Assembly: GCA_964404025.1 (NCBI GenBank)
Contig: CAYOIJ010000001.1
Coordinates: 22,685 to 86,684, forward strand
DNA: 64,000 nt
Source: an uncultured Pseudomonadales bacterium
GTDB lineage: Bacteria; Patescibacteriota; Microgenomatia; UBA1400; PJMF01
Direction: 5' to 3'
A program made the position numbers and the translations under genes. Below the pieces are notes generated by a model. It was given only the letters and a program-made list of their open reading frames with translations, made no database searches and was not told where the DNA came from. The number at the start of each line of letters is the position of its first letter. Within the stretch, counting starts at the first letter, position 1. Positions 34,406 through 58,891 of the stretch are shown piece by piece.

Positions 34406-35323
34406 TTACAAAAGTAGTAGTAGCAGTGCGCCAAAGCCAAGAACACCGAGTCCAGCTTTTAGGTAATTAAACCAATCGGCAAATCCTGATTCGGTTGGCA
34501 CAAGGGCTGGTCTCTCAATAACATTATTACCATCTGGCAAGCGACAGTTAACATCAGTTGGATTAACATCAAGACGACATAGTCCCTCATAACAAATGTG
34601 ACTGACATTGTCGCAGTCAGTATTTTCACTACAACTTTCATTACAACCAACAGTGGTAATTACTTGAGTTAAAACAGGAGTTGGCTCTTCTTTGGGAGGA
34701 GTAGTTACCGTAGTAGGTGTTGGAGTGGCAACTGGCTTATCGGTGGGAGTAGGTTCTGGAGTTTGAGTTGGGCTGGGAGTTCCTGTTGGTTCTGGAGTTG
34801 GAGTGAGTGTTAAAGATGGGGTTGGCGTGGTAGTTGGCTCAACACTAGGAGTGGGAGAGGGAGTAATGCTAATTGTTGGCTCCACACAGCAAGAGTCATA
34901 ATCACGCTGATTACGGCACTCATCAGTTTGTGAAGCTAAGCCACAAATACCAACTGCAATGGCCACTCCTTCATTTGGAGCGCCTTGTATACAAACATAA
35001 TCTTCTTGACAATCATTATCATCAGCGCAGCCACTTTCGGCACAGCTTAAGTTTAAAGGAACACTAAAGGTAGTGACACAAGATTCTTCTACAGGAATAT
35101 ATGCTTCTGGTTGAGATTGTGGGACGTTGGGAGCTACTGGTCCTGGTTCTAACTCTTGTTTGCGACTAATCAAAATAACACTAGCTGATCCCACGATAAA
35201 AAGTAGCAGAGTAAAAAACAATAGTACAGTTTTAAGTGGGTTTTTGCTCTTTTTTGTTTTAGAATCACCAGCACTCGGTGCTTTTGCATATTTGACTGGT
35301 TGGTAATTATTGTTTTTGTCCAT
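34406..35323 (-). CDS. Cys-rich, Thr/Pro-linker surface protein, paralog A. N-terminal signal-anchor and a shared C-terminal domain ending in a hydrophobic tail
   Basis: N-terminal basic region plus TM. Many Cys. PT-rich linker (TPSPTPSVEPTTTPTPS...). The roughly 95-aa C-terminal domain VITTVGCNESCSENTDCDNVSHICYEGLCRLDVNPTDVNCRLPDG...VPTESGFADWFNYLKAGLGVLGFGALLLLLL is near-identical to paralog C. Confidence 0.6.
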   Translation of the reverse strand: MDKNNNYQPVKYAKAPSAGDSKTKKSKNPLKTVLLFFTLLLFIVGSASVILISRKQELEPGPVAPNVPQSQPEAYIPVEESCVTTFSVPLNLSCAESGCADDNDCQEDYVCIQGAPNEGVAIAVGICGLASQTDECRNQRDYDSCCVEPTISITPSPTPSVEPTTTPTPSLTLTPTPEPTGTPSPTQTPEPTPTDKPVATPTPTTVTTPPKEEPTPVLTQVITTVGCNESCSENTDCDNVSHICYEGLCRLDVNPTDVNCRLPDGNNVIERPALVPTESGFADWFNYLKAGLGVLGFGALLLLLL

Positions 35324-35334
35324 TTTCTTATTTT

Positions 35335-36417
35335 TTATTCCAAGCTTGCCTCTTTAATTTCTGGGTTGGTCCATTCTTGGCAAGAATCTAAGCCTGTACA
35401 TAAGCGACATTCAGCAATAAAATCCCCACCTTCTTTAATTAAATAATCCGCAGAAGTATTGGCAATACTAAGTCTTTCTTCAAGAAAGACTACTTCTCCG
35501 TTTGGTTCTAAGACAGCAAAATCAAAGCGCTCAATTAAGTCATCAGGATTTCCGCTAGATGCTAGTTTACCAGAACATCTAAACCTAATAATGCTAACTC
35601 CAGGTATAAATTCTTGATCTGCATCTCCGGTTAAAACTTGATTATTTTGATCTAGAATTTCAACTTTGCGACACATTGGAACAGGAGTGGGTGTTGGTCC
35701 AGTAGTGGGTGTTGGTCCAGTGGTTGGAGTGGGACCGGTAGTTGGAGTGGGTCCAGTGGTGGGTGTTGGTGTTGGAGGACGTGGAGTGTTAGTTGGTTGA
35801 GGCGTATTGCCACACTCTCTTAGCGAAGTTTCATAATGCTGACAGCTCGAGTTAACATTGCAGTAGGTGTTTGAGTTGTTAACAGCATCAATTTGCCAGC
35901 ATTGAGGGTAGTTTGAGCTTCTGGCTTTATTCAGTAGGGTACTACAGTTTCCAAACTCCCAATAAGAACTAGGGTCAGACTCAGAGCATTTTCCAGGAAC
36001 TAGAATACCTTTTGGACAGTTGATGAGCACACATTTACCCTCCCAAGTACCTGAAGTATTTCGACAAGAACTTCCATAATGATAGGAATTACAGCTAAAA
36101 CCAGAACTATAAGCTTGTTGTCTGGTGTCTTGACGCTGTTTCATTAAAATTAAACCCGCAGCACTACTAGCCAGTAGGAAGAAAAGCAAGACAATTGCTA
36201 GTATATTGGTTTTATTTTTAGTCAAGTTGTCTTGTGGATTTTTAGAGCCAGAATCTTTACTAATCAGATTAGGTGGGGTTTTTTCTGTTTTAACTTCATT
36301 TTTCTTATCAAAATTATTACGTCTATTCAGGAAAAAAGTATTAGATTCTAGCTTATCAGGCTGACTCGGTATTGTTTCATTGTGAACTGGTGAAAAACGA
36401 TTGCTAGTGTCAGTCAT
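35335..36417 (-). CDS. Cys-rich, Thr/Pro-repeat surface protein, paralog B. It has a different C-terminal domain and no C-terminal hydrophobic tail
   Basis: N-terminal cytoplasmic stretch plus TM (ILAIVLLFFLLASSAAGLIL). Post-TM motif MKQRQDTRQQAYSS shared with paralog C (KRAQDLRQQAAYQ). (TGPTP)n repeats. Confidence 0.6.
   Translation of the reverse strand: MTDTSNRFSPVHNETIPSQPDKLESNTFFLNRRNNFDKKNEVKTEKTPPNLISKDSGSKNPQDNLTKNKTNILAIVLLFFLLASSAAGLILMKQRQDTRQQAYSSGFSCNSYHYGSSCRNTSGTWEGKCVLINCPKGILVPGKCSESDPSSYWEFGNCSTLLNKARSSNYPQCWQIDAVNNSNTYCNVNSSCQHYETSLRECGNTPQPTNTPRPPTPTPTTGPTPTTGPTPTTGPTPTTGPTPTPVPMCRKVEILDQNNQVLTGDADQEFIPGVSIIRFRCSGKLASSGNPDDLIERFDFAVLEPNGEVVFLEERLSIANTSADYLIKEGGDFIAECRLCTGLDSCQEWTNPEIKEASLE
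35690..35800. repeat. Tandem 15-nt coding repeat encoding (PTTGPT)n within surface protein paralog B
   Basis: GTGGGTGTTGGTCCAGTAGTGGGTGTTGGTCCAGTGGTTGGAGTGGGACCGGTAGTTGGAGTGGGTCCAGTGGTGGGTGTTGG read directly. Confidence 0.7.
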
Positions 36418-36522
36418 AAAAAGACTATGAATAAGGCATTACAAGTATTATCTTTAGATAAGCATACTCTATTTTTTGAGGCTTTAGCAAGAGTAATTTT
36501 TTATATTCCATTCTAGAATTAA

Positions 36523-37626
36523 CTAAAATAGAAGTAACAATAAGGTTCCAAGTCCTAGCGCACCCAAACCAATTTTAATGAAATTAAACCAATCAGCAAA
36601 ACCTGTTTCAGTTGGAATTTCTACTGCTCGCTCAATGATAGTACCACCATCTGGCAAGCGACAGTTAACATCAGTTGGGTAGACATCTAGACGACAAAAG
36701 CCTTCATAGCAAATATGGCTAATATTGGCACAATCAGCGTTTTCATTGCAACTTTCATTACAGCCAACAGTGGTAATTACTCTAGTTACGACTGGAGTTG
36801 GTTCTTCTGGTTTGTTAGTTGGCTGGATACTTGACGTGGGACTAGTAGTGGCTGTGGGTTCAGTGGTTGGGCCGGTGGTTGGCTCGGATGTTGGCCCAGT
36901 GGTTGGTCCGGTGGTAGGCTTAGTAGTTGGTTCGATTGTAGGTTCAGTGGTAGGTTCAGTGGTAGGTTCAGTGGTAGGTTCAGTAGTTGGTTCGATGGTG
37001 GGTTCAGTGGTTGGCTCGGATGTTGGCCCAGTGGTGGGTCCAGTGGTGGGTTTGGTGGTAGGCTCAGTGCTGGGTTTGGCTGTGGGTTGAGGAGAACTTT
37101 GACAATAATCTCCACCTCCTCCAGTACTAATACAAGTTCTTGGGCCACCATTTCCACCACAATTAGTAGTAATCCAACAATCGTGAGTATAGCACTTGGT
37201 ATACAAAAGATACCAATCCTTACAATAAGAACCTCCTTTGTTAGAACAACTACTAATCTGACTAGAGGTACAGATGATGTCCTGATAGGCAGCTTGTTGT
37301 CTCAGGTCTTGAGCTCTTTTAATTAAAAATAAAGAAGTTAAGGTGCCAATTACCAGTAATAAAAGTAAAATACCTAGCAAGATTGTTTTCTTTTGTTTAG
37401 GTGTTTTTTTTTGCTTGTTTTTTGTAGGTGCTTTACTTTTACCACTGTTGTTACCTGATTGAGATGTATTTACTGGATTTGTTTGAAGAATTGGGTTATT
37501 AGTAGAGGCATTTGTTGTTGAAGGCCCGTTAGGTCTAACCATCGGAGGCTCGCTAGGCTTGCTAGCTTGATTCTCATGAGGTTTTTGTTGGTATTTATTT
37601 GGTAAATATTTACTTAAGTCAGACAT
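36523..37626 (-). CDS. Cys-rich, Thr/Pro-repeat surface protein, paralog C, with the shared C-terminal domain and hydrophobic tail
   Basis: N-terminal Lys-rich region plus TM. Cys/Gly-rich segment. Roughly 80-aa (PTTE/PTTG/PTTK) repeat. C-terminus VITTVGCNESCNENADCANISHICYEGFCRLDVYPTDVNCRLPDGGTIIERAVEIPTETGFADWFNFIKIGLGALGLGTLLLLLF. Confidence 0.6.
   Translation of the reverse strand: MSDLSKYLPNKYQQKPHENQASKPSEPPMVRPNGPSTTNASTNNPILQTNPVNTSQSGNNSGKSKAPTKNKQKKTPKQKKTILLGILLLLLVIGTLTSLFLIKRAQDLRQQAAYQDIICTSSQISSCSNKGGSYCKDWYLLYTKCYTHDCWITTNCGGNGGPRTCISTGGGGDYCQSSPQPTAKPSTEPTTKPTTGPTTGPTSEPTTEPTIEPTTEPTTEPTTEPTTEPTIEPTTKPTTGPTTGPTSEPTTGPTTEPTATTSPTSSIQPTNKPEEPTPVVTRVITTVGCNESCNENADCANISHICYEGFCRLDVYPTDVNCRLPDGGTIIERAVEIPTETGFADWFNFIKIGLGALGLGTLLLLLF
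36845..37085. repeat. Tandem 12-nt coding repeat, about 20 units (GGTTCAGTGGTA-like), encoding (PTTE/PTTG/PTIE)n in paralog C
   Basis: Near-perfect 12-nt periodicity read directly. The antisense ORF-track entries here are frame artefacts of the repeat. Confidence 0.8.
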
Positions 37627-37756: not shown

Positions 37757-38401
37757 TTAAATCATTTTTAACAATTGATACCAAATTATTTGAAAAATTA
37801 AAAAATATTGTTGCCTTAAATTTAAAGAAAGAGTATCTTGTTCAAGTTTTTTCCAAGCTTGTAAGCTTGTGTGCCTTTCATTATCTAGCACCCACAAAGA
37901 AAAAAGACCTGGTTTTACTTGATGTCTCCACAAGCACCAATTAGGATCAATTTTTTTTAAAGCATTAGCTTCATTGACGGGTAGTGGTCTAGGACCGACT
38001 AAAGCCATTTGACCTTTTAAGACGTTAATTAATTGAGGAAGTTCATCAAGTCCGCTATGAGATAAAAACTTGCCAATTTTCAAAAAGCGAGGGTCGTCAC
38101 CAATTTTAAACATTGGTGTTGGGGCATAGTTTAAGTCAACAAGTTGTTGGTGGTTTTTAGAGCGAAGTGATTCAGCATTTTTAACCATAGTGCGTAATTT
38201 ATAAACGGTAAAAGTTTTTTTATATTGGCCCATTCTTTTTTGTTTAAAAATAATGGGACGACCAATTTTCCATAATAAAAATGGCCAAGTGATGATAGAT
38301 ATTGGTAATAAAATTATTATAAGTATTATTACTAAGACTAGGTCAACTGTTCTTTTAGATTGTTTGTTGAAACTAGGATGAAGGAAATTAATTTTTCTCA
38401 T
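37757..38401 (-). CDS. Polyprenyl-phosphate sugar phosphotransferase (Bac_transf / WbaP-PglC-like priming transferase)
   Basis: N-terminal TM. FKQKRMGQYKKTFTVYKLRTM and the diagnostic ALVGPRPL motif. 214 aa. Confidence 0.8.
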   Translation of the reverse strand: MRKINFLHPSFNKQSKRTVDLVLVIILIIILLPISIITWPFLLWKIGRPIIFKQKRMGQYKKTFTVYKLRTMVKNAESLRSKNHQQLVDLNYAPTPMFKIGDDPRFLKIGKFLSHSGLDELPQLINVLKGQMALVGPRPLPVNEANALKKIDPNWCLWRHQVKPGLFSLWVLDNERHTSLQAWKKLEQDTLSLNLRQQYFLIFQIIWYQLLKMI

Positions 38402-38485: not shown

Positions 38486-39331
38486 TTGAATGTTTTAAAA
38501 GGAAATGATTTTTTAGAAAATAGAATGAAATTTAGTAAAAAACAGTGTTATTGGTTAGATTTTTTATCGGCAATGACACAAAAAGAAATTAAAGCACGTT
38601 ATAAACGAGCTACTTTCGGTTTTCTATGGATAATATTAAATCCTCTTTTACAGATGTTGGTCTTGGGTTTTGTTTTTCAGTTTTTTGTTCCAATCCGAGT
38701 TGACAATTATTTTCTATTTTTATTTGCAGGATTGTTGCCTTGGAATTTTTTGTCTCAGAGTTTAACTAAAACAACACCAGCTTTTTTTTATGAAAGAAAT
38801 TTAATTAAAAAAGCTAAATTTCCTAGAGAAGGAATTGTTTTATCAATTATTTTTTCCAACTTTTTTCATTTTTTGGTAGCTTTATCTCTGCTTTTGGTAG
38901 CTTTAATTGGTGATAAATTATTGATTGAAAGTTACGGTTTTGTACAAATAATTTTTTACATGTTAAGAATGTTATGGCTTTTACCGGCGATGTTACTATT
39001 AATAGTTTTTACCACTGGTTTATCCTTAATTACCTCATCTCTTAATGTCAGATTTCGTGACATAAATTTTATTGTTCAATTAACAGTAATGCTGTGGTTT
39101 TATGCCACACCAGTGATTTACACATTAAATTTATTGCCAGAATTTTTGTGGCCGATTTTTTATTTAAATCCGATGACTGCTATAATTGAATTGTTTCATC
39201 ACGCATTGATGGGTCTACCGATTACAATAACCAGCTTTATTTGGATGACGGTTGGAGTAATTTTCTGTTTTTTTTATTTTGGTTTACGAATTTTTAGCAG
39301 AGAAAGTAAAAATTTTGATGATTGGTTGTAA
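38486..39331 (+). CDS. wzm: ABC-2 family polysaccharide export permease (Wzm/TagG-like)
   Basis: Six TM segments. KEIKARYKRATFGFLWIILNPLLQMLVLGFVF signature of ABC-2 permeases. Paired with the following ATPase. Confidence 0.7.
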   Translation: MNVLKGNDFLENRMKFSKKQCYWLDFLSAMTQKEIKARYKRATFGFLWIILNPLLQMLVLGFVFQFFVPIRVDNYFLFLFAGLLPWNFLSQSLTKTTPAFFYERNLIKKAKFPREGIVLSIIFSNFFHFLVALSLLLVALIGDKLLIESYGFVQIIFYMLRMLWLLPAMLLLIVFTTGLSLITSSLNVRFRDINFIVQLTVMLWFYATPVIYTLNLLPEFLWPIFYLNPMTAIIELFHHALMGLPITITSFIWMTVGVIFCFFYFGLRIFSRESKNFDDWL

Positions 39332-39343
39332 TTTTGGAAAAAT

Positions 39344-40054
39344 ATGACTGTTTTACAAGAAAAGACAATAAAAAAACGCAAAGTAAGCAATGAGGTTGCT
39401 ATTTCTTTATCTAATATTGGAAAGAAATATACCATTACTCACGAAAAACCAACTCTTGTAGAGGATGTTAGTAGAATATTACATTTTCAAAAAAAACAAG
39501 AATATTGGGCATTAAAGAACGTTGACTTAAAAATTTATAAAGGGGAAAAAGTTGGCCTTTATGGACCTAATGGAATTGGGAAGACTACGATATTGAAGAT
39601 TATTGCTGGTATTAGTGCTCCTACTGAGGGCAAAATAAAAACTAAAGGACGAACTGTTTCTTTAATAGACTTGGAAGCTGGTTTTCATCCTGATCTAACT
39701 GGACAGGAAAACATCTTTTTAAACGGCTTAATTATTGGTATGGAAAAAAATGAAATAAAAGAAAAATTTAATAAGATTGTTGATTTTGCTGGTATTGGTG
39801 ATTTTATTACCGCACCTTTGTACACCTACTCTAGTGGCATGAAGTTGAGATTGGGTTTTAGTGTGGCAATTCATTCTAATCCGGAAATATTACTTCTTGA
39901 TGAGGTAATCAATGCAGGAGATGAAAAATTTCGAGAAAAAGTTTGGAACGTTTTATTAAAAATGTTTGATGAAGAAATTACAGTGTTGATGGCCAGTCAG
40001 TGGTTGGAGATACTAAACAAACACATGTCGAAGATTATAAGTTTGTCTAAATAA
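39344..40054 (+). CDS. wzt: ABC transporter ATP-binding protein (Wzt/TagH-like, short form without a C-terminal glycan-binding domain)
   Basis: Walker A GLYGPNGIGKTT. Signature YSSGMKLRLGFSVA. Walker B ILLLDE. 236 aa. Confidence 0.85.
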   Translation: MTVLQEKTIKKRKVSNEVAISLSNIGKKYTITHEKPTLVEDVSRILHFQKKQEYWALKNVDLKIYKGEKVGLYGPNGIGKTTILKIIAGISAPTEGKIKTKGRTVSLIDLEAGFHPDLTGQENIFLNGLIIGMEKNEIKEKFNKIVDFAGIGDFITAPLYTYSSGMKLRLGFSVAIHSNPEILLLDEVINAGDEKFREKVWNVLLKMFDEEITVLMASQWLEILNKHMSKIISLSK

Positions 40055-40066
40055 TTGTTTTATTTT

Positions 40067-41113
40067 TTAATCGTTTATTAAAACCTTATAAGCTGATAAA
40101 AAGAAAACCTCCTTTTTTCTAAATCCACTTTTTTTTAAAACACTAATAAAATCTGTAATTTTATAAAATTTATACCAGTTCTGGTTAAAATTTAACTTTA
40201 ATATTGATTTTTTCAGCGAAAGAAACAAGTAGCCATATTCAATATCCTTGGTTGAGGAATCGGGAGTAAAGTGAATAAAAGTAATTTTTTCATTCTTAGT
40301 TTTCAATAAGGAGTAACTTTTATCCAATGCTTTTGGTTTTTTTTGACTCAAATACAGGCAATACACTGTTTGTTCTACTAAGTGAATCTGATATAAAAAT
40401 TCTACGCCTCTGTAGTAGTCTCTAATTATTCTTTCATACAAGGCATTACCAATGTTTTCTAACCAGTGATTTAAGTTTTTAAGGGTTCGCTGAGGATTTA
40501 CTGATTCTCTATTTATGCATAGCAAGCCACTATTTAATTGCTGAGGTAGGTTTTTCATTTTTAAATACTTTTGTGCCTCAATCGGTGAAATTACTTTAAA
40601 GTTCAAGTAATCCTGCAAGTACAATGAAAATAAATTTTTTGCATCTTTATCATTTACCCAGTCGATAATTTTTTTAGGAGAAGAAAAAAATAAACAGTCG
40701 GCATCTATAACAATGATTTTCTTGTATTGAGATAAAATTGGAGTGAATAATTTTTTTCCTGCCCAGGTTTTTTGATACATCTCCTCTGCAATTGAATGTT
40801 TTTTAAGCAGCGTTAGTGTTTGGGAATTAAGTTTTTCTAATAATTCAAATTCAGAACCCATTAATTTTATAAGCTTTTTGTGAAACTTTGTAAGTGATCC
40901 GTCATTGACGAAAATGATTTTGACATTTTTCACGAATTTTTTAAAACTAATTGCACTCAAAATTCCTAAATATATGTATTGATTGCCAACAGTAATAAAA
41001 GCAGCGGTGTTTTTTATTAATTTATTTTTAGAATTTTTCTTAAAAGAAATAATTAATACATTGACAAATATGGCAGTATTGACAATGTATCTTTTTAAAC
41101 GATGTTTGATCAT
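40067..41113 (-). CDS. Hypothetical protein, possible nucleotide-sugar-dependent glycosyltransferase (DxD-like KIIVIDADCLFF)
   Basis: 348 aa. N-terminal hydrophobic segment. Only weak motif evidence. Confidence 0.35.
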   Translation of the reverse strand: MIKHRLKRYIVNTAIFVNVLIISFKKNSKNKLIKNTAAFITVGNQYIYLGILSAISFKKFVKNVKIIFVNDGSLTKFHKKLIKLMGSEFELLEKLNSQTLTLLKKHSIAEEMYQKTWAGKKLFTPILSQYKKIIVIDADCLFFSSPKKIIDWVNDKDAKNLFSLYLQDYLNFKVISPIEAQKYLKMKNLPQQLNSGLLCINRESVNPQRTLKNLNHWLENIGNALYERIIRDYYRGVEFLYQIHLVEQTVYCLYLSQKKPKALDKSYSLLKTKNEKITFIHFTPDSSTKDIEYGYLFLSLKKSILKLNFNQNWYKFYKITDFISVLKKSGFRKKEVFFLSAYKVLIND

Positions 41114-41248
41114 AAGTTGTTGTGTTTTAAGTTTTAGTTTTTATAAGTAAATAATAGACTAATCTTTTACCAGCAGGGTTCAGGTAATGATATACTATGT
41201 GCAATTATTCTACAATAAAGGCATGGGAATTATTTTTCGATATAAATT

Positions 41249-42625
41249 ATGAAAACAAAGGTTATTTTTGTTAATCCACCATTTTATAGGTCAGAAAATT
41301 CAAACGCATCCAATAACTTCAAGGTGGATGGACCGAGATTTCACAAGATATATAGGAACATCCCTCAATTATTAAAAATTTGGAATAAATTTAGAGATCC
41401 TACGGTTAGATTTGGTGTAAGAGCTGGGTCTAGATGGCCGTGGACTTGGGATCAGCCCCTAGAACCAATTCACTATCCATTTATGATGGCTTATGCAACT
41501 TCATATTTGATTTCAAAAGGAATAGAATCAAAATTAATTGATTCTATCGCTGAAGAAGACTACTCTTATTCTAACTTTCTCAAAAAAATAAAAAAGGAAA
41601 AAGCAGATATTGTTGTCATGGAAACCTCTATGATTTCTTTGGACATTGATATGTGGTTGGCTAAAAAAATTAGTAGCTTTAGCGAGGTAGGAATAGCTGG
41701 CTCTTATGTAACTTATTATGCTCAAAGTATGCAAAATAAATATCCTTTTATCAGCTATTTGTTGCCAGGAGAATATATAAAATCATCTTTTAAAATGGCA
41801 GTCAAGAAACAAAAGGGTGTTTATAAATCAGAAATTATAAGTGACTTGGATGCATTGCCTTTTCCATACAGAGACTATCCAGAGTCAATAAAGTATTACG
41901 ATCCTACGATGCCAACCCCCAAGCCTCAACTGCAAATTTATGGGAGCAAGGGTTGTCCCTTCAAATGTTCGTTTTGTCTTTGGACTCAAACCATGTATTT
42001 TCATAAGTTCACACTGAGAGACCCTAAGAGAATTGCCGAAGAAATTAAGCATTGTGTAAAAAAATATAAATTTAAAAGTATTTTTTTTGATGATGACACT
42101 TTTAATATTGGCAATGAACGCATAAGTGAATTATGCGACCTATTAAAAGAAATTAATTTACCATGGACGATGATGGGGAGACTAGATTGTTCTCCTGATT
42201 GGTTGATTGACAAAATGGTTGCTTGTGGCTGTGTTGGCATGAGGTTTGGTTTGGAGACTTTTAATAAAAAAGTTAGTAAAAGAGTAGATAAGGGATTGGT
42301 CGATCAGAATCTTTACAAGAAAATAAAAAGATTGAGTGATAAGTATCCTAAATTAATGTTGAGAATATTCATGATGAAAGATTTACCAGGTCAGACAAAT
42401 CAAATGCATCAATCTGATATGAAAAAATTACAAGGTCTAGGATTTAAAGAATTTGGTGATAAATATAGACAAATTCAAGTATCTGTTTGTGCGCCTTTTC
42501 CCGGAACTAAACTGTTTGAAGAAATTAAGGACAAAGTTGATTCTGATAAATTAGACGATTATCGTTTATATGATGGGCACTTAAATACAATAATGAAATA
42601 TTTTAATAAAAATAATTCAAACTAG
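41249..42625 (+). CDS. B12-binding-domain radical SAM enzyme
   Basis: CxxxCxxC cluster YGSKGCPFKCSFCLW. N-terminal roughly 180 aa consistent with a cobalamin-binding Rossmann-like domain (ADIVVMETSM...). 458 aa. Confidence 0.7.
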   Translation: MKTKVIFVNPPFYRSENSNASNNFKVDGPRFHKIYRNIPQLLKIWNKFRDPTVRFGVRAGSRWPWTWDQPLEPIHYPFMMAYATSYLISKGIESKLIDSIAEEDYSYSNFLKKIKKEKADIVVMETSMISLDIDMWLAKKISSFSEVGIAGSYVTYYAQSMQNKYPFISYLLPGEYIKSSFKMAVKKQKGVYKSEIISDLDALPFPYRDYPESIKYYDPTMPTPKPQLQIYGSKGCPFKCSFCLWTQTMYFHKFTLRDPKRIAEEIKHCVKKYKFKSIFFDDDTFNIGNERISELCDLLKEINLPWTMMGRLDCSPDWLIDKMVACGCVGMRFGLETFNKKVSKRVDKGLVDQNLYKKIKRLSDKYPKLMLRIFMMKDLPGQTNQMHQSDMKKLQGLGFKEFGDKYRQIQVSVCAPFPGTKLFEEIKDKVDSDKLDDYRLYDGHLNTIMKYFNKNNSN

Positions 42626-42636
42626 TATTTTCAGTT

Positions 42637-43494: not shown

Positions 43495-43496
43495 TT

Positions 43497-45616: not shown

Positions 45617-45634
45617 TGATATAATATTTTTGTA

Positions 45635-51567: not shown

Positions 51568-52607
51568 TGGGTTTATCTAAAAACAATCAAGTTTATATTA
51601 TTAATTTTAATCAGCAAGAATTTAAGAAAAATAAAAACATAAGGCAGATAAAGCCTTTTAATTGTTTACCATTTAGTAGATTTACTCTTATTAAAAAAAT
51701 AAATCAGCATTTATACAAATTCTTATTAGGACTTTGGTTTTCTTTGAAATTTCCTTTAAAGAGACGTTATCTATGGATCTTTTTTCCTCAATTGGCAGAT
51801 TTATTAAGTTTGAGATTTTTTGCTTTTTCAATTGTTTTTGATATTGTTGACTTTCACTTTTCTTTTGATTCTGATGCTTATCAAAAACTACAAACACAAA
51901 AGAAAAAAATACTGGACAGCGCTGATTATATTTTTTCTATATCAAAAAGTTTAAAAAAATTATATGAAAATGAAACTGATAAAGAAATTCACTTGGTAAA
52001 ACAAGGGTTCGATTATCAAACTTTCAAAAAAAGAGCCAAAAAGAGTGTTAAGGTACCTGGTAGTAAGCCAATTATAGGTTTTGTGGGACAGATAAGCATG
52101 CGTTTAGATTTTTCATTATTAGATGATTTGCTTAAGGATAATCCAAATCTAAACTTTGTTTTTATTGGTCCTTTGCACTATGAGCCCAACGTTAGCCAAG
52201 ATTCAGGCTTATTACTTTTAAAAGAAAAATTTAATCAGCTTTTGACTCATTCAAATTTTTTTCATTATGATAAGCAAGAGAGAAATAAAATTTTATCCTT
52301 TATTGAGACCTTTGATCTTGCAATTATTCCTTATGACGCATCTTTAGTATTCAATCGCTATTGTTATCCAATGAAATTATTCGAATATTTTTATGCTGGT
52401 AAGCCGGTGGTCAGCAGTAATATTAAGGAGCTACAAAAATTTCCTAATTTTGTTAAAATTGCTTATTCACGAGATGATTGGCAAAAGCTGATTTTGCAGT
52501 TACTAAACCAGGATTGGTCAAAAAAACAACAGCAAAAGCAAAGGAAAATAGCTTTAGTAAATTCTTGGGAAAATAAATTGAATGAGATGATGTCTATCAT
52601 CGATTAA
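51489..52607 (+). CDS. Glycosyltransferase family 1-like (GT-B)
   Basis: C-terminal FDLAIIPYDASLVFNRYCYPMKLFEYFYAGKPVVSSNIKEL. Confidence 0.6.
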   Translation: MLKNALILIPDLSGGQQVCDFVWQTALGLSKNNQVYIINFNQQEFKKNKNIRQIKPFNCLPFSRFTLIKKINQHLYKFLLGLWFSLKFPLKRRYLWIFFPQLADLLSLRFFAFSIVFDIVDFHFSFDSDAYQKLQTQKKKILDSADYIFSISKSLKKLYENETDKEIHLVKQGFDYQTFKKRAKKSVKVPGSKPIIGFVGQISMRLDFSLLDDLLKDNPNLNFVFIGPLHYEPNVSQDSGLLLLKEKFNQLLTHSNFFHYDKQERNKILSFIETFDLAIIPYDASLVFNRYCYPMKLFEYFYAGKPVVSSNIKELQKFPNFVKIAYSRDDWQKLILQLLNQDWSKKQQQKQRKIALVNSWENKLNEMMSIID

Positions 52608-52615: not shown

Positions 52616-53614
52616 ATGAAACATAATAAAAACAAGAAAACTAAAAAAACAAAAATTTTAATTACTGGGGCTGGTGGTTTTATTGGTGGTCATTTAGTTA
52701 ATTATTTTGATCTTCAACAAAATACAGAAATTAGAGCGGTAGATATTAAACCTCTGGCTGAGTGGCAACAAGTTAATAAAAATGCAGAAAATTTAATTTT
52801 CGATCTGAAAGATTTCAAAAATTGCCAAATTGTCAGTGAGGGTATTGACGAAGTTTATAATCTAGCTGCTGATATGGGTGGCATGGGCTTCATTGAAAAC
52901 AATAAGGGCTTGTGTATGCTTAATGTTTTAATTAATACTCATATGTTGATGGCAGCTGCTGATTCTGGAGTAAAAAGATTTTTTTACTCTTCTTCAGCTT
53001 GTATTTATCCTTTAAATAAACAATCCAACAGTAGCGTTATTGAATTAAAAGAGAGTGATGCTTATCCAGCTATGCCAGAAGATGGATATGGTTGGGAAAA
53101 GCTTTTTTCTGAACGAATGTGTCGTCATTTTAGTGAAGATTTTAATTTAGTAACAAGAGTGGCTCGTTTTCACAATGTTTATGGACCTTTTGGTGAGTAT
53201 AAAGGTGGTCGAGAAAAAGCACCGGCTGCTTTATGCAGGAAAGTAATAGAAGCCAAAATTAATAAAAAGAAAGATATCGAAATTTGGGGTGATGGTCAAC
53301 AGACAAGAACCTTTATGTATATGGACGATTGTGTTAAAGGTATTGATTTAATCATGCATAGTGAAATTGATGAGCCAATTAATTTAGGTAGAAGTGAGTT
53401 GGTAACAATCAATGAATTATTGTCAATAATAGAAAAAATTGCTGAAATTAAATTGAATCGTCAATATAACTTAGAAGCTCCGCAAGGGGTTCGTGGTAGA
53501 AGTAGTGATAATACTTTGATTAAAAAACACCTTGATTGGGAACCAGAAGTTGATTTGCACGAGGGTATGAAAAAAACTTATGAATGGATAGAAAAAAAGG
53601 TGATGAACAGATAG
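52616..53614 (+). CDS. GDP-mannose 3,5-epimerase homolog (plant GME-type extended SDR)
   Basis: Near-collinear similarity, recalled by eye, to plant GME. NLAADMGGMGFIENN / RFFYSSSACIYP / ESDAYPAMPEDGYGWEKL (YxxxK) / RFHNVYGPFGEYKGGREKAPAALCRK / IWGDGQQTRTFMYMDDCV / GVRGRSSDNTLIKKHLDWEP. Confidence 0.75.
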   Translation: MKHNKNKKTKKTKILITGAGGFIGGHLVNYFDLQQNTEIRAVDIKPLAEWQQVNKNAENLIFDLKDFKNCQIVSEGIDEVYNLAADMGGMGFIENNKGLCMLNVLINTHMLMAAADSGVKRFFYSSSACIYPLNKQSNSSVIELKESDAYPAMPEDGYGWEKLFSERMCRHFSEDFNLVTRVARFHNVYGPFGEYKGGREKAPAALCRKVIEAKINKKKDIEIWGDGQQTRTFMYMDDCVKGIDLIMHSEIDEPINLGRSELVTINELLSIIEKIAEIKLNRQYNLEAPQGVRGRSSDNTLIKKHLDWEPEVDLHEGMKKTYEWIEKKVMNR

Positions 53615-53635
53615 AATTTTTGCGAAGTTTATTTT

Positions 53636-55168
53636 TTAAAGACAATGCGTATATACCCTAGTAAAATCATAATCTGGCCCTTCTTGATACCATAGACAAC
53701 TTTTTTCTGAGTTAATAAAATTTCCTAGCCGGTATAGCCCAATTGACTCATACCAACTTCTCAAGGAATTGTCGTATTCTCCATAAATCCCCCAGTCCAA
53801 CAAATTGTTATAGGGAATTATAACTTTTGTATTATGCATTTTTTCATATTCAACGATACTATTTGCTAAATTATCCTGGTTGCTAATTTTTTCAATATTT
53901 TTTACAGAGATTAGAGAAATATTTGAATTATTTTTGTAATAGTATTCTAATGTTTCTGGATAGGGAGATAGAATGACGTATTGTTGTTGATCTTTTTGTA
54001 TTTTGTTTTGAATACTTTGTGCTGTTGAATAATCGTGACTACAAAAAACATATTGATTGTTTACAGTAAAATTTGGAAGAATTTTCCAAAAATTAATTAT
54101 GCAGATTACTAGCGTGATAACAATTAATATCTTTTTAAAATTGTTTTTTAGATTTTTTACAGCAAGGGTTGTCGATAAAACAAAGCTAAATATCACAGGA
54201 GTAAAATATCTTTCTAAATAAGCAGGAAATAAAGTATGAAAAACTAAAAACAACCCACTAAATAGTAGAGTTGTTTTGATTAAATTATTATTTTTATTTT
54301 TATTAAAATTATATTTTTGTAAAAAAAATATTAATAAATAAAAAATAACACTAATAAAAATAATAATTAAATTTGGCTTGGCATATAAATAATTTTCATT
54401 ATAGAAAAGAGTAAAAGGGAAATTACTTATGAATCTTAATTCTGGAATATCTCCTGATCTTTGAAACAACTCGACTAAAAAAGGAGTATTTAAGAAATTC
54501 CTAGAATAATTTCTAGTCATTAGCACAGTCAATATAACTGTGGCTGGAATAAAAAATACTATAATTTTTTTAATCAAATTTACTAAATTGCGCTTGTTCA
54601 AGAAATCAATAAGAATAAGGCTTATAAATAATAAAATAGATTCATATCTAATTAATATTCCTAAAGCAGTCAAAAAACTAGCTAAAAGAATCTTTTTCTT
54701 CCATACCAAAAAGAAGATAAATAAGCTAAACATGGAGAATAACACTTCAGAATTATTGGAAACTGCAGATTTAAATACTATTGGGTTTGATATTAAAAAT
54801 AATATGGCTAAACCGGCATGCCATATATCTCTATCTTTTTTTAAAATGAAATAAACCAAAAGAATGGCTGCGGTCATAGTAATAGCATTGATTAACAAAG
54901 CGACTTCAATTTCAGTCAAAAAAGCAGATAATACTTTTGAAAAAATGCCAATTAATATCGGGTTTGCAGGTAAAGATTGGATTGTTGGTGGTAATTGAAA
55001 CTTTAAATAAAAGTTGCTATCTCTTAAAAACTGAAAAAAATCTGGATCAACATGACGCTGTGGACCAATTAACTGTACTAAAAAAGCAAAATATATAAAA
55101 ATAATTGTATAAAAAATAATGTTAAATAATTTAACTATTTTTATGTTTTTAGTTTTTTTATTTTGCAT
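53636..55168 (-). CDS. Polytopic membrane protein, GT-C-like (ArnT/PMT-type glycosyltransferase candidate)
   Basis: 510 aa, about 12-13 TM helices. Topology resembles GT-C fold transferases. No definitive motif. Confidence 0.3.
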   Translation of the reverse strand: MQNKKTKNIKIVKLFNIIFYTIIFIYFAFLVQLIGPQRHVDPDFFQFLRDSNFYLKFQLPPTIQSLPANPILIGIFSKVLSAFLTEIEVALLINAITMTAAILLVYFILKKDRDIWHAGLAILFLISNPIVFKSAVSNNSEVLFSMFSLFIFFLVWKKKILLASFLTALGILIRYESILLFISLILIDFLNKRNLVNLIKKIIVFFIPATVILTVLMTRNYSRNFLNTPFLVELFQRSGDIPELRFISNFPFTLFYNENYLYAKPNLIIIFISVIFYLLIFFLQKYNFNKNKNNNLIKTTLLFSGLFLVFHTLFPAYLERYFTPVIFSFVLSTTLAVKNLKNNFKKILIVITLVICIINFWKILPNFTVNNQYVFCSHDYSTAQSIQNKIQKDQQQYVILSPYPETLEYYYKNNSNISLISVKNIEKISNQDNLANSIVEYEKMHNTKVIIPYNNLLDWGIYGEYDNSLRSWYESIGLYRLGNFINSEKSCLWYQEGPDYDFTRVYTHCL

Positions 55169-55169
55169 T

Positions 55170-56669
55170 TTAGTTTTGAAAAACTATGTATTCGATATTT
55201 TGTAATTGAAATTTTAATAAAATTTTTTCTTTGGAAAGATAAGCTGTATTTGTTTGATTGTAATCTGTATTTCGCCAACATAGTAAAACAGTGTTGTTGT
55301 TTTTTAAAGTTATTTGACTATTAAAATCATCAAATAAAAAATAGGGTTCTTCTTTCTGAAAATACCAATACATTCTTGATTCCCAATAAAAATTGTTTAT
55401 GGTGTTTTTGCAAAATTCACCACCATCAATAATGCTTGAATCAGGGAGATATTGATGGATTGTGTCACTCACTTGCAGATGGTGTCGATAAGAAATATTA
55501 CTAGGCATTTTTTCTTGTTCAAAAGATTTGCCACTGATTAAAATAGTTAAGGATAATAATAAAAAAGCTAACTTGTTTTTTTCTAAAGTAATTTTTAAAC
55601 CACAAGCTAGTAAAGCAGCTAAGAAAAAATAAATATTATTTAAATAATGACTCAATGGGTTTTCATGAATATTATAAAAAACATAGTGCAATATTAAGGC
55701 AAAAAGAGAAATAAATGTAAATTTATTTAAATGTTTGTTTTTACTAATCAAACCGATGATAATTATTAGGCTATATATTAAATACATAATAAGTGTTAAT
55801 TTCGGGTGAACCATATTGATTGTTAAATCAACAGTTTTTAAAAAATTTTCAATTCTAAAGTTAGAAAAATTAAGTTGATTGGTGCCAGCGCCAAGTAATT
55901 GTTGGTGTATATCGCTTAAAGCCAGATCTTTTATAATTTGTGAATAAAATATTAAAAAAGAGAGTAAACCACTAATTCCAAAAGTTATTAATTTAAGTAA
56001 ATTTTTTATTTTTAATTGTTTAAAATTAAAACTTAAAACATATATCATTAAATATATTGGCCAGATAAAAATAGCTCCATACCAGAAGCTACTAGCTAGT
56101 GAAAGTAAAGTGGCGCTGATTACTAAATTAATTGTATTGTTGTTTCTAATTGCTGACTGAAAAAACAATAATGATGTAAGAACAATTATTACACTGTTTG
56201 AGGCAGTTGTTTGCACAATGCTAAAATCTATAAATATTGATGAAAGAGCATAAAAAAGGCTTATGATTAGTGCTGGAAGGCTGGAGAATTCCTTTTTAAT
56301 AATTAAGAAAACCAAAACAATACCTAAGGATTGATAAAATATTATTAATCCAGAGATATAGTCGTAGTTTCCTTTAGCGATTAAAGTTAATAGTGCAATG
56401 AAATAGTAATAAATAGAGGGGTAGGTAGAACCAATACCAGTATTCCATGGTCCATATTGAGAACTCATATTTTTAAAAGCAATCAGATATCCGGCTAACA
56501 TATCTCTAGCAACATCACCAAGCCACACACTATTTGTTGAGTAGAGGTATAGCCTAATAAAAAATCCCAAGCAAAATATCAAAATAATTGTCAAAATGTC
56601 AAATTTTTGTTGTTGTTCTTGGTAAGTAGAAATTATTTGTGACAATTTCTTTTTGTTTTTGATTTTCAT
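55170..56669 (-). CDS. Polytopic membrane protein, GT-C-like (ArnT/PMT-type glycosyltransferase candidate)
   Basis: 499 aa. The first extracytoplasmic loop carries an acidic WLGDVARD motif after TM1, reminiscent of the D-containing loop of GT39/GT83 enzymes. About 11 TM helices. Confidence 0.35.
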   Translation of the reverse strand: MKIKNKKKLSQIISTYQEQQQKFDILTIILIFCLGFFIRLYLYSTNSVWLGDVARDMLAGYLIAFKNMSSQYGPWNTGIGSTYPSIYYYFIALLTLIAKGNYDYISGLIIFYQSLGIVLVFLIIKKEFSSLPALIISLFYALSSIFIDFSIVQTTASNSVIIVLTSLLFFQSAIRNNNTINLVISATLLSLASSFWYGAIFIWPIYLMIYVLSFNFKQLKIKNLLKLITFGISGLLSFLIFYSQIIKDLALSDIHQQLLGAGTNQLNFSNFRIENFLKTVDLTINMVHPKLTLIMYLIYSLIIIIGLISKNKHLNKFTFISLFALILHYVFYNIHENPLSHYLNNIYFFLAALLACGLKITLEKNKLAFLLLSLTILISGKSFEQEKMPSNISYRHHLQVSDTIHQYLPDSSIIDGGEFCKNTINNFYWESRMYWYFQKEEPYFLFDDFNSQITLKNNNTVLLCWRNTDYNQTNTAYLSKEKILLKFQLQNIEYIVFQN

Positions 56670-56716
56670 GAGGCTCTACAACTATAATAAAATAAATCAC
56701 AACTAACAAGTTATTT

Positions 56717-58891
56717 ATGAAAGACTTTTTGTTTAAGCTGTTTTATCCGTTTTTTTCAATACTTATTTTATTATCAATTTTTTTAATGGAAACTGAATAT
56801 AAGTTTTATCTATTTGCCTTGTGGTCATGCTTTCTACTATTTTATAGTTTTATGATAGGAGACAAAAAAACCAGATCTTCGACTTCAGACTTGAACCAAA
56901 ATCAGACTTCATTACTAAAGATAAAAAAACCATTTTTGCGCAAAATTCACTTTTTTAGTTTCCTTTTTTTGTTTTTGGCTCTAATCAGTAGTGTTTTTTC
57001 TCATCACAAGCCTCTTTCTTTAGAAAAGTACTTATTTTATTTGGTAGCTATCAGTATTTTTTTGTTTTTTTTACAAATTAAAAAAAAGTTTTTTAAAGCC
57101 AAATTATTTGTTGAATACTTGTTGTTAATTACTTTTATATTAAATATCTTGGTTATTATTTTGAGCTTTGTTAGTAATTCTAGGGAATTTTTTCAAGGTG
57201 TGAATCTGTTAGTTAGGAGTTATGGACACAATCACTATGTAGCTTTTTTACTCTTAGTTTTACCTTTGATCTGGTGGCATTTGTTAGAAGAAACTCCTTC
57301 TTATTTTCTAACGAATAAGGTAAAAGTATTTTTCGATATTTTTTTATTGATTAGTTCTTACTTATTACTATTAATTAGCTTATCTCGTTGGGCTTTATTT
57401 ATTAGTATTATTCAGTTTTTCTTAATTTTTTTATTAGTAAAAAAAGTTTTTTTTAATTTATACAAAAAAAAAGCTGTTTATTTTTTAATTAAGAGCGCGA
57501 TTTTGAGTTTTTTATCTCTTGCTTTAATTTTTTTGTTTTTATCTTTGCCTCTGTCGATCAATGATAAAGAGAATTGTTTTTTGCGCTTGTACGGTAAAGA
57601 TTTATGTACACCAATAGAACAAAATAGCCGTTTTTTTTATTGGCGACAGGCTTGGTTAAGTTTCAAAAATTACCCAATTGTCGGTTATGGTTTAGGTTCT
57701 TTTAAATATGCAGCTCGTCGTTTCCCAATAATTAATCAACAAAATAGTGCTTATGCTCATAATATTTTTTTACACAATTTGGCCGAAATGGGCGTTTTGG
57801 GTGGAGGAAGTTTTATTTTATTTATCATATATATTTTTTATCAATCTGGACTTTTAGTTTTTAAATCAAAAAATCCATTGGCTAAATTTCTATATTTAGC
57901 TGCCATAAGCTCTTCAATCAACGCCATGTTAGATTTTGATTGGCATTTTTTTATTATTTTTTTGTTAACACTCATTTTTTTGGCTTTCATTTTATCTGAC
58001 TTTGCTAAAATTAATGATAACCAAAGACTAAGGAATTCGAAGTCGAGTTTTTTGTTTATATTAGCTTTTTTTACCTTTATATTGGTTGTTGCTGATATTT
58101 TAACTGTTAGTTGGCAATCAAAAAAACCAGAATATTGGTTAAAATTTACTCCGTTTTTAAATTTTGCTGCTAATGCAACGCTCGAGGAGTCAGTAATCAA
58201 TGTTAGTAATTATGAAAGTTTGTACAACTGGTATCGTTATGATACAGGATTTATAAATCGCTTCTTAAATTTAGAAGAACTAGACGATGAGCGTGAGAAA
58301 CAGCTGTATTTAGATTTAGCTGAGATAGATCCAGTAAGTTTTATGGCCAAAATTCATTTTAAAGATAGATCTTTAGAAGAAGCTGAGATTTTATTGAAAG
58401 AATTATTAAGAATTATAGATAGTTATCAGGCATTTAATGACTATTATTTTATTAGTTATCAGCAGCGAATTGATTTGGCTGAACAAATTTATAGTTTAGG
58501 ACAAAACGCTTATTTACAAAGTGATTGGTCAAGGGCTAGCTATTTTTATCAATCAGCGCATTTTTTTGATCCTTATATTTTCTTTAACGAACGAGCAATC
58601 TTTTTAGATGAAGACAACTTAGATCGACTTTCATTATTTTTTTTAAATTTTCAAGATTTTTCACCACATGAGAGTGGAGATTATTATCATTATCTATTTT
58701 TATATAGACAGGTGATAACTAAGCTTTTTGAAGATAATCAGTTGTTAGAATTTAAGCAGTTAGTAGGGGCAATGCTTGATCAGGAGCCAGAGTCAAAAGA
58801 TTATCTAACTAATCATTTACAAGAATTAGTGATCAGTGAAGAGCAAGCACAAGCTCTTATTTATGTTGAAGAAAATTATAAATCTAATTAA
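56717..58891 (+). CDS. O-antigen ligase (Wzy_C) domain membrane protein fused to a C-terminal soluble helical/TPR-like domain
   Basis: TM-rich N-terminal half with the Wzy_C signature IVGYGLGSFKYAARRF...AHNIFLHNLAEMGVLGG. A roughly 270-aa C-terminal soluble domain rich in Y/F/L/E/D. Confidence 0.6.
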   Translation: MKDFLFKLFYPFFSILILLSIFLMETEYKFYLFALWSCFLLFYSFMIGDKKTRSSTSDLNQNQTSLLKIKKPFLRKIHFFSFLFLFLALISSVFSHHKPLSLEKYLFYLVAISIFLFFLQIKKKFFKAKLFVEYLLLITFILNILVIILSFVSNSREFFQGVNLLVRSYGHNHYVAFLLLVLPLIWWHLLEETPSYFLTNKVKVFFDIFLLISSYLLLLISLSRWALFISIIQFFLIFLLVKKVFFNLYKKKAVYFLIKSAILSFLSLALIFLFLSLPLSINDKENCFLRLYGKDLCTPIEQNSRFFYWRQAWLSFKNYPIVGYGLGSFKYAARRFPIINQQNSAYAHNIFLHNLAEMGVLGGGSFILFIIYIFYQSGLLVFKSKNPLAKFLYLAAISSSINAMLDFDWHFFIIFLLTLIFLAFILSDFAKINDNQRLRNSKSSFLFILAFFTFILVVADILTVSWQSKKPEYWLKFTPFLNFAANATLEESVINVSNYESLYNWYRYDTGFINRFLNLEELDDEREKQLYLDLAEIDPVSFMAKIHFKDRSLEEAEILLKELLRIIDSYQAFNDYYFISYQQRIDLAEQIYSLGQNAYLQSDWSRASYFYQSAHFFDPYIFFNERAIFLDEDNLDRLSLFFLNFQDFSPHESGDYYHYLFLYRQVITKLFEDNQLLEFKQLVGAMLDQEPESKDYLTNHLQELVISEEQAQALIYVEENYKSN

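Follow-up and report, generated by a model that had tools for sequence, protein, structure and literature searches.

The window analysed here, a 64-kb stretch of contig CAYOIJ010000001.1 from an uncultured bacterium of Patescibacteria type, carries a 21-kb locus for the synthesis of a surface glycan (37757-58891), adjoined by a triad of genes for surface proteins A, B and C (34406-37626). Because of the gene content and of what is established for the families concerned, it is very probable that the locus encodes a pathway like that of the surface-layer glycosylation (slg) clusters of Gram-positive bacteria. Such a pathway would comprise priming and elongation on a lipid carrier, export by an ATP-binding cassette (ABC) transporter of the Wzm/Wzt type, transfer of the chain en bloc by a ligase, and the addition of further sugars by membrane glycosyltransferases (GTs) of the GT-C fold. 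The components are all of known kinds, and the analogy with the slg clusters provides a close precedent for their combination. Protein O-glycosylation, with the adjacent surface proteins among the acceptors, was put forward in the original prediction and is retained as a tentative reading, held at somewhat less than even confidence. No paper linking Patescibacteria or the candidate phyla radiation (CPR) with O-glycosylation or with O-antigen ligases was found in the literature.

Gene content of the glycan locus

All open reading frames (ORFs) of the locus could be assigned to glycan synthesis with Pfam and NCBIfam, some of them by weak matches. The elements named in the original prediction, a priming phosphotransferase, Wzm/Wzt, tailoring enzymes, two Wzy_C proteins and two GT-C-like proteins, are all present according to Pfam. 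The genes of the triad and of the locus are listed below, with product lengths in amino acids (aa).

34406..35323, minus: surface protein A, 305 aa; N-terminal transmembrane anchor, Cys-rich domain, Thr/Pro-rich linker (about residues 150-210), C-terminal Cys-rich module, degenerate LPXTG-like 'VPTESG', hydrophobic tail
35335..36417, minus: surface protein B, 360 aa; N-terminal transmembrane anchor, Cys-rich domain, (PTTG/PT)n linker, C-terminal beta-rich domain, no C-terminal anchor
36523..37626, minus: surface protein C, 367 aa; N-terminal transmembrane anchor, Cys-rich domain, (EPTT/GPTT)n linker of about 90 residues, C-terminal Cys-rich module as in A, 'IPTETG', hydrophobic tail
37757..38401, minus: priming enzyme, a small polyprenyl-phosphate phosphoglycosyltransferase, 214 aa, one N-terminal helix (Pfam Bac_transf 1e-44; NCBIfam EPS_sugtrans/WbaP C-terminal domain)
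38486..39331, plus: Wzm-type ABC-2 permease (Pfam ABC2_membrane 6e-15)
39344..40054, plus: Wzt-type ABC ATPase, short (236 aa), without C-terminal glycan-binding extension (Pfam ABC_tran 5e-24)
40067..41113, minus: probable GT-A-type glycosyltransferase, 348 aa, soluble, DxD motif (weak Mannosyl_trans3 match, E 0.018)
41249..42625, plus: radical SAM enzyme, presumably for sugar modification (Pfam Radical_SAM 9e-11)
42637..43494, plus: RmlD-like NAD(P)-dependent sugar-nucleotide reductase or epimerase (Pfam RmlD_sub_bind 4e-32)
43497..44690, minus: GT-B-type glycosyltransferase, GT1/GT4-type (Glyco_trans_1_2 / DUF3880)
44690..45616, minus: GT2 glycosyltransferase, 308 aa, soluble (Pfam)
45635..46051, minus: WbuC-family cupin (NCBIfam TIGR04366 3e-8, below cut-off)
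46243..47409, plus: GT1/GT4 glycosyltransferase, 388 aa, start of the conserved core (Pfam; 94% identical in L003/L010)
47359..48222, minus: GT2 glycosyltransferase, 287 aa (Pfam)
48248..49114, minus: 288-aa protein, one N-terminal transmembrane helix and an external domain (weak DUF4330 match)
49095..50576, minus: Wzy_C protein, 493 aa, second ligase or polymerase-like polytopic enzyme (Pfam Wzy_C 4e-20)
50560..51459, minus: GT2 glycosyltransferase, likely product 299 aa from ATG (Pfam; gene calls of public assemblies)
51489..52607, plus: GT1-type glycosyltransferase, 372 aa (Pfam)
52616..53614, plus: NAD-dependent sugar-nucleotide epimerase/dehydratase (Pfam Epimerase 2e-41)
53636..55168, minus: GT-C1, 510 aa, GT-C-fold membrane glycosyltransferase with external C-terminal alpha/beta domain (PMT_2 below threshold; structural model and Foldseek)
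55170..56669, minus: GT-C2, 499 aa, putative remote paralogue of GT-C1 (PMT_2 below threshold; profile-profile match)
56717..58891, plus: WaaL/PglL-type ligase, 724 aa, 13 predicted transmembrane helices, C-terminal TPR-like domain of about 250 residues (Pfam Wzy_C 1e-12)

Five or six GT2/GT1 enzymes had been predicted. Three GT2 and three GT1/GT4-type enzymes are present, and the weak GT-A-like protein at 40067-41113, whose homologues adjoin Wzt in three of the comparison loci (L007, L027 and L030), brings the count to six or seven. For the GT2 gene at 50560-51459, the program that lists ORFs had placed the start at a GTG at 51567 (335 aa), where it overlaps the divergent gene 51489-52607; the ATG at 51459 removes the overlap and is the most likely start. 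The Wzm and Wzt genes are adjacent, and neither a Wzx/MOP flippase nor an LCP transferase was recognized among the locus ORFs with Pfam and NCBIfam. Adjacent Wzm and Wzt without Wzx are what is expected of an ABC-transporter-dependent pathway. The G+C content of the window is about 33%, with 24-32% in the glycan locus against 33-37% in its flanks. The same exact proteins are also present in a few short-read assemblies, and SRR8925811 and SRR8925721 are among the samples in which the organism occurs.

The priming transferase gene lies 130 bp upstream of the gene for surface protein C, an order shared by L010-L014. The whole triad runs in the direction of this gene, the gaps from the priming transferase to the triad and within the triad being 130, 105 and 11 bp. 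No terminator-like site was seen on the minus strand between the priming transferase and the triad, in a promoter and terminator scan that was indistinguishable from shuffled controls.

Read as a pathway, the locus would begin at the inner face of the membrane, where the priming phosphoglycosyltransferase (37757-38401) would put a sugar-1-phosphate onto polyprenyl phosphate. The six or seven soluble enzymes of the GT families would then lengthen the chain with nucleotide sugars that the radical-SAM, RmlD-like, cupin and epimerase enzymes have modified, and the finished lipid-linked chain would be exported by Wzm/Wzt. Outside, a ligase of the WaaL/PglL family, with the 724-aa enzyme as the main candidate, would move the chain en bloc to its acceptor, and the two GT-C enzymes would add further sugars taken from polyprenyl-monophosphate sugars. 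The acceptors may be Ser and Thr residues in the Thr/Pro-rich stalks of wall-associated proteins, with the three adjacent proteins as first candidates. Gene content, the fold and conserved catalytic residues of the ligase and of GT-C1, the predicted topology and the recurring adjacency are what the analysis itself shows; in which order the enzymes act, whether export depends on the ABC transporter and, most of all, what the acceptor is, we infer.

The ligase and the membrane glycosyltransferases

On sequence and model, the 724-aa protein is classed with the WaaL/PglL ligase superfamily, and it retains the catalytic residues. Its Wzy_C match scores 48.2 bits against a curated Pfam cut-off of 31.7. 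It belongs to a family of 57 proteins of about 700 aa, all with PF04932 and a C-terminal extension; the two most distant members carry explicit TPR Pfam domains, and the family profile matches TPR proteins at residues 555-675. Four residues (R224, R305, H348 and D406) are invariant in 40 ligase sequences, of which H348 aligns with the 'HN' His of the structures 7tpg and 9rmk, and D406 with E404 of 9rmk. The latter structure (610 aa) we take to be of PglL type from the depositor's name, its length and the numbering of E404, which fits Neisseria PglL; no paper on it could be traced. The full-length family profile matches 9rmk with an E-value of 1.9e-6 and WaaL with 9e-3, while a profile of the membrane domain only gives 8e-6 for WaaL and 4e-5 for 9rmk, so that the rank swaps with the profile used.

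The AlphaFold2 (AF2) model of the ligase has a mean predicted local distance difference test (pLDDT) score of 86.5, with 13 helices and a helical-repeat domain at 470-724, and its top Foldseek match is WaaL (7tpg_B, TM-score 0.54 on the target). A set of 13 helices with a periplasmic C-terminal domain is described for PglS and PglL, as are the catalytic roles assigned here to the conserved residues (PMC12800693). The loops rich in Lys and Arg (48-71, 121-127, 241-251 and 428-435) all fall on one side of the membrane by the positive-inside rule, read from the sequence, and the catalytic loop (277-349), the DFD motif and the TPR-like domain are therefore predicted to lie outside.

In the 493-aa Wzy_C protein, the residues R293, R367 and H412 are invariant in the alignment, and its family gave no PDB match by single sequence or by profile. 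NCBIfam holds no family for either Wzy_C protein, and single-sequence PDB searches with both of these and both GT-C proteins returned nothing useful. The 288-aa DUF4330-like protein is always paired with the 493-aa Wzy_C protein (L003, L005, L006, L008, L010, L019 and L020).

GT-C1 has 17 detectable relatives, all of Patescibacteria type, and their family profile has no sequence match in the PDB. The AF2 model, built on the family alignment, reaches a pLDDT of 85 and a predicted TM-score (pTM) of 0.85. Its Foldseek matches are ArnT, the oligosaccharyltransferases AglB/PglB/STT3, ALG12/ALG9, GPI mannosyltransferase I and AftA, with ALG12, Pmt4 and ArnT as the nearest folds, and on this modelling GT-C1 is taken as a true GT-C enzyme. 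The first external loop, right after helix 1, holds the motif 'RHVDPDFFQ' with an invariant D43 and a nearly invariant D41; by analogy with other GT-C enzymes, this acidic motif would be catalytic. GT-C2 was not linked to GT-C1 by BLASTP, and the relation emerged in a profile-profile comparison (hhalign probability 98.5%, E 2e-15 over 307 columns). On this match GT-C2 is classed as a remote paralogue of GT-C1, with its GT-C status confirmed.

The original prediction had left the ORFs at 53636, 55170 and 56717 to be sorted among PglL/PilO, PMT, ArnT and Wzy types. The ligase and GT-C classes held up, and a particular closeness to protein O-mannosyltransferases (PMTs) did not. Direct O-glycosylation in the manner of actinobacterial Pmt, in which GT-C1 and/or GT-C2 would put single sugars on linker Thr residues as the proteins emerge while the Wzy_C ligases serve a separate polymer, is improbable. 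PMT_2 is indeed the best Pfam match of both proteins and is matched by four of five GT-C2 relatives, and the linkers are rich in Thr and Pro; but the scores of GT-C1 and GT-C2 (24.8 and 21.4) lie below the curated cut-off of 26.1, and PMT_2 also covers ArnT-like enzymes. Neither protein showed an affinity specific to PMTs: ALG12, ArnT, GPI mannosyltransferase I, ALG3 and AftB match GT-C1 in the same range as Pmt4 and Pmt2. Moreover, no Ppm1-like synthase was found in the window, and GT-C1 homologues also occur in loci that have no triad. A match to a lipid-A or arabinose transferase had been regarded beforehand as adverse to protein glycosylation. This criterion is not decisive: ArnT stands among several GT-C enzymes that match about equally well.

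Homologues of GT-C1 in L005 (11521-14487), L006 (8931-13759) and L007 (14748-17846) are accompanied by a small GT2 (about 224 aa), a DUF2304 protein and an asparagine-synthase-like amidotransferase of 640-680 aa. The genes for these three companions are absent from the window.

The surface proteins and their genomic neighbourhood

Each protein of the triad has a Lys-rich N-terminus, one transmembrane helix, a Cys-rich ectodomain with 14-15 Cys, and a linker of 30-90 residues in which Thr and Pro together make up 63-83%. Direct alignment shows that A and C have in common a C-terminal Cys-rich module of about 60 residues and a hydrophobic tail, a relation missed by BLASTP, probably owing to its composition correction. 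No Pfam match, NCBIfam family, S-layer or SLH domain, or similarity to a carbohydrate-binding family was found for the surface proteins. An exact look-up of protein C gave no record, and a word-indexed protein search with the C-terminal module gave two proteins only. An exhaustive HMMER search with the module of protein A recovered a family of 245 clusters among 1.84 billion representatives, and from these matches the family is apparently restricted to Patescibacteria.

Among the best 150 of the 245 clusters, 118 have the pentapeptide [LQT]Px[STA]G some 30 residues before the C-terminus, most often as LPQTG (30), LPETG (20), LPQSG (18) or LPESG (12). It is followed in the family by 'GPxDW..WLK' and then a Gly-rich hydrophobic stretch, and Lys or Arg stands at the very end in only 4 of the 150. 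A segment with at least 50% Thr+Pro is present in 108 of the 141 members of at least 200 aa. Because most members end in an LPXTG-like motif and then a hydrophobic stretch, the family resembles wall-anchored proteins of the sortase type, though its tail is unusual, a likely variant of the sortase sorting signal. The copies of the window (A, 34406-35323; C, 36523-37626) do not show the combination of LPXTG, hydrophobic stretch and basic tail, as the pentapeptide has drifted to VPTESG in A and IPTETG in C, the canonical Leu-Pro being shifted or lost. No sortase gene was recognized in the window.

The triad might also be partners of the glycan rather than its substrates, with Cys-rich modules that bind or organize the exported polymer, as SLH proteins do with secondary wall polymers, the genes for whose synthesis adjoin S-layer genes. 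The conserved adjacency to Wzm/Wzt and the conservation of Cys-rich modules that match nothing in Pfam would suit such a role, but the modules resemble no carbohydrate-binding family and the protein family also exists without neighbouring glycan genes, so that this explanation is considered very improbable.

Pilins, the other targets suggested in the original prediction, were rejected. The genes at 18122-21150 encode pilins of the type IV secretion system (T4SS; VirB2/TrbC-type, PF18895), not type IV pilins, and these are without Ser/Thr-rich tracts. There are six such genes in tandem. Each product has a helix that acts as signal or anchor, and the sequence 'W(I/L)TSxGD' is conserved in its core; with a VirB4-like ATPase (1844-4039) they make up a T4SS-like apparatus close to the origin of replication (dnaA 4144-5652, dnaN 6012-7160). 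The window also holds mevalonate and polyprenyl genes, many small hypothetical genes, and a gene at 9901-12933 whose 1010-aa membrane product combines a DUF4012 domain with an extended low-complexity region rich in Lys.

Scanning the GTDB species genomes with the surface-protein module yielded 26 loci. The 17 informative loci are the window, L008 (a metagenome contig) and those 15 genome loci whose upstream sequence extends for about 6 kb or more; flanks were inspected over 10 kb, and a priming transferase and/or Wzm/Wzt and/or a GT and Wzy_C were counted as glycan genes. Homologues of such genes lie immediately upstream of the triad in 12 of the 17 (window, L008, L010, L012, L013, L014, L019, L020, L026, L027, L029 and L030), at 35-85% protein identity. 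In L008 the full triad, in the same order, comes directly after GT2, GT1, DUF4330-like, Wzy_C and GT1 genes, the last being the orthologue of 51489..52607. Orthologues of surface protein B hold the same middle position in L008, L010, L020, L021, L026, L029, L030 and L035. L035 has by homology the S1-pgk flank that is also seen in L023 and L033, and no homologues of the window's glycan genes were found in L025 and L034. From these comparisons, the backbone is S1-pgk, an island of 0-21 kb, and the triad. Adjacency of triad and glycan genes is, by sequence comparison, far commoner than expected for a random gene but not obligatory in either direction.

A HlyD gene, an ABC ATPase gene and a MacB/FtsX transporter gene follow the surface-protein genes in L023 (10494-13528) and L033 (10460-13406), and similarly in L025, L027, L029-L032 and L035; they are absent at this place in the window. 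ABC ATPase matches downstream of the triad in several relatives proved to be these HlyD-MacB transporters and not Wzt, and they were discarded as evidence.

The closest relative (L003/L004 and L010) has kept the core from the 388-aa GT1 to pgk, as well as the priming transferase and the triad. Rather than being even, the identities to the window fall into groups: 91-97% for the cytoplasmic enzymes (94-97% for the transferases among them; 90-97% for the neighbouring glycosyltransferases with pgk), 63-69% for GT-C1, GT-C2 and the 724-aa ligase (53636-58891, compared with L003 4681-11524), 76-79% for the triad and 71% for the priming transferase. The low values had been considered as a sign of co-evolution with protein targets, an idea that was dropped: the ligase has diverged to the same degree in all its domains, and the variable half of the locus also differs, so that a change of the donor glycan explains them equally. 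The uniformity suggests that the whole three-gene module was replaced by recombination rather than altered by local selection.

The block 38486-46051 of the window (Wzm/Wzt, radical SAM, RmlD-like, two transferases and cupin) is replaced in this relative, by genes for a methyltransferase, an AAA kinase-like protein, an IMPDH-like protein and a HAD hydrolase (L003 19014-21524, L010 5180-8470), and beyond pgk there is a different Wzm/Wzt pair, in which Wzt is longer (347 aa). By the arrangement in the more distant L005, L036 and L037, the ligase and the priming enzyme are the conserved ends of a highly variable island, one that behaves like a serotype-variable locus.

All relatives found for the studied genes come from metagenome-assembled Patescibacteria, some of them labelled Candidatus Pacebacteria, Woesebacteria, Paceibacterota or 'Patescibacteria group'. 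Patescibacteria-type triad and glycan genes are also carried by L020 (CP011212.1, complete, 853 kb, labelled 'candidate division TM6') and by many metagenome-assembled genomes labelled 'uncultured Pseudomonadales'; these labels are probably misassignments.

The acceptor and the comparison with known systems

The confidences given here to the readings of the acceptor are not mutually exclusive. Besides protein, an envelope polysaccharide or lipoglycan with a non-protein acceptor has to be considered. Assembly in the cytoplasm and Wzm/Wzt export would be unchanged; the Wzy_C enzymes would then either polymerize the chain or attach it to a membrane glycolipid or the wall, the GT-C enzymes would add side sugars outside, in the manner of the multi-component transmembrane glycosylation of teichoic acids and rhamnose polysaccharides, and the surface genes would be neighbours by synteny or through a hotspot. 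This is a real possibility, if one rated short of an even chance, and a number of findings weigh against a protein acceptor, several of them in its favour.

To begin with the enzymes, neither sequence nor fold offers a feature by which a protein O-oligosaccharyltransferase could be told from a ligase acting on a lipid or the wall. The best fold match of the 724-aa enzyme is WaaL, whose acceptor is a lipid and which scores like 9rmk in the profiles. At E-values up to 1, Pfam reported neither PglL_A nor Wzy_C_2 in this enzyme, domains that occur in many proteobacterial O-oligosaccharyltransferases though not universally. GT-C1 itself, as described above, matches sugar transferases of several other kinds as well as it does PMTs, and NCBIfam ties it to families for 'cell surface glycopolymer formation'. 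The GT2 (about 224 aa) and DUF2304 proteins beside its homologues, a GacI/GacJ-like pair and candidate polyprenyl-phosphate-sugar synthase, have no homologue in the 64-kb window by tblastn, and the GT-C enzymes of Gram-positive wall-polymer loci usually decorate polymers (PMC8035078). An MGDG-synthase-like glycolipid transferase is also encoded in the window (27946-29106).

The surface proteins and gene order add to this. The original prediction had taken the Thr/Pro-rich linkers as O-glycosylation substrates; their composition is confirmed, but such stalks are generic spacers of wall-anchored proteins, glycosylated or not. Co-conservation, which the original prediction proposed as a check, holds in the 12 loci and fails in others. 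In L023 and L033 the triad lies between S1-pgk and the HlyD-MacB transporter, without glycan genes by Pfam, and in L005, L036 and L037 no triad is present up to 10 kb from the ligase locus, the arrangement there being variable glycan genes, ligase, pgk, S1 and priming transferase. The genomes are related, and their shared S1-pgk backbone points to inherited synteny, or a hotspot for a variable island, as the source of some of the adjacency. The gene content upstream of the ligase is also highly variable, in the manner of a serotype locus.

Other evidence favours a protein acceptor over such a polysaccharide. Patescibacteria are regarded as lacking lipopolysaccharide (LPS), so that the classical acceptor of WaaL is missing. 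An LCP-type wall ligase was not found in the locus or the window. The TPR-like domain of the ligase, predicted to face outwards, would be a protein-interaction module, and the priming transferase gene lies just upstream of the triad in the same orientation. These points together with the recurring adjacency favour protein, and the slg-like architecture and the class of the ligase agree with the proposal that the locus glycosylates the adjacent proteins; the alike matches to WaaL and 9rmk, to which a lipid or wall acceptor corresponds equally well, leave this proposal tentative. A C-terminal TPR has been reported for WsfB and PglL (PMC2943079).

A wider proposal, rather doubtful at present, would be that Patescibacteria have a protein O-glycosylation system of their own, in which a ligase with an external TPR, conserved near pgk and the priming transferase, loads variable ABC-exported glycans onto the Thr/Pro-rich stalks of a lineage-restricted, Cys-rich family of LPXTG-type wall proteins, with GT-C enzymes adding sugars outside. 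Patescibacteria/CPR are ultra-small and mostly thought to be attached to other cells, and their surface chemistry is almost unstudied. If true, the CPR would have its first defined pathway of protein glycosylation, and with it a likely determinant of host-cell attachment and phage evasion in these episymbionts. Glycosylation of the adjacent proteins by the locus would, for its part, explain the high variability of the locus between close relatives. It would also offer a testable pair, the family of ligases of about 700 aa and the LPXTG-type Thr/Pro-rich family, both expressible in E. coli or Bacillus glyco-engineering strains. With an acceptor other than protein, the locus would be a biologically ordinary envelope-polysaccharide cluster, still useful as a marker of a variable surface glycan.

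Genes that may supply the lipid carriers are found elsewhere in the window, namely the MGDG-synthase/GT28-like glycolipid transferase gene already mentioned, a polyprenyl synthase gene (30954-32054), an isopentenyl-phosphate-kinase-like gene (33026-33826; AA_kinase in the syntenic L009) and an undecaprenyl-diphosphate-synthase-like gene (17395-18111). They form a possible supply line, with a possible glycolipid anchor.

Of the systems available for comparison, the PMTs (GT39, actinobacterial and eukaryotic) share with the window the GT-C fold and Thr/Pro-rich candidate substrates. They differ in that GT-C1 is no closer to them than to ALG12, ArnT or AftB, that a MIR domain is absent, and that the neighbourhood lacks a polyprenyl-phosphate-mannose synthase. 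The multi-component transmembrane glycosylation systems (CsbB/GtcA/YfhO; GacI/GacJ/GacK/GacL) likewise place a GT-C enzyme within a wall-glycan locus, and the GT2 and DUF2304 proteins of the relatives are like GacI/GacJ (PMC8035078), whereas in the window both this pair and a GtrA-type flippase are absent. WaaL with the ABC-dependent O-polysaccharide pathway provides the top fold (7tpg), an equal profile match, the same catalytic residues, and Wzm/Wzt export of a chain completed on its carrier. The ligase described here, however, has an extra helix and an external TPR-like domain of 250 residues that the 7tpg chain (413 aa) is too short to contain, and a lipid A-core acceptor is not expected in this lineage.

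The known PglL, PilO and PglS enzymes prefer low-complexity regions rich in Ser, Ala and Pro. PglL, PilO (TfpO) and PglS have the same Wzy_C/WaaL-like fold with 13 helices, an extracytoplasmic C-terminal domain, and a catalytic His, Arg and acidic residue, E404 of PglL corresponding to D406 (PMC12800693). The similarity to them is at the level of profiles (E about 1e-5 to 1e-6) and no better than to WaaL; PglL_A and Wzy_C_2 are lacking here, the known systems use short glycans flipped by Wzx rather than Wzm/Wzt, and the pilins of the window are of the T4SS and not of type IV.

The slg clusters of Geobacillus stearothermophilus NRS 2004/3a and Paenibacillus alvei (WsaP/WsfP, Wzm/Wzt, WsaB/WsfB) combine a priming transferase, Wzm/Wzt and a Wzy_C/TPR protein predicted to be an oligosaccharyl:protein transferase, next to the target gene and at low G+C (PMC2943079). 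The locus of the window differs from them in its small one-helix priming enzyme, which is not of the five-helix WbaP type, in having two Wzy_C and two GT-C proteins, and in its Patescibacterium host. The candidate targets also differ, being small proteins, rich in Cys and in Thr/Pro, that are anchored at the N-terminus and end in an LPXTG-like motif, without an S-layer or SLH domain. What the two have in common is priming by a Bac_transf enzyme, Wzm/Wzt without Wzx, a Wzy_C protein with C-terminal TPR as in WsfB, a surface-protein gene adjoining the cluster, a G+C content below that of the flanks and, in relatives of the window, an asparagine-synthase homologue like wsfA of P. alvei.

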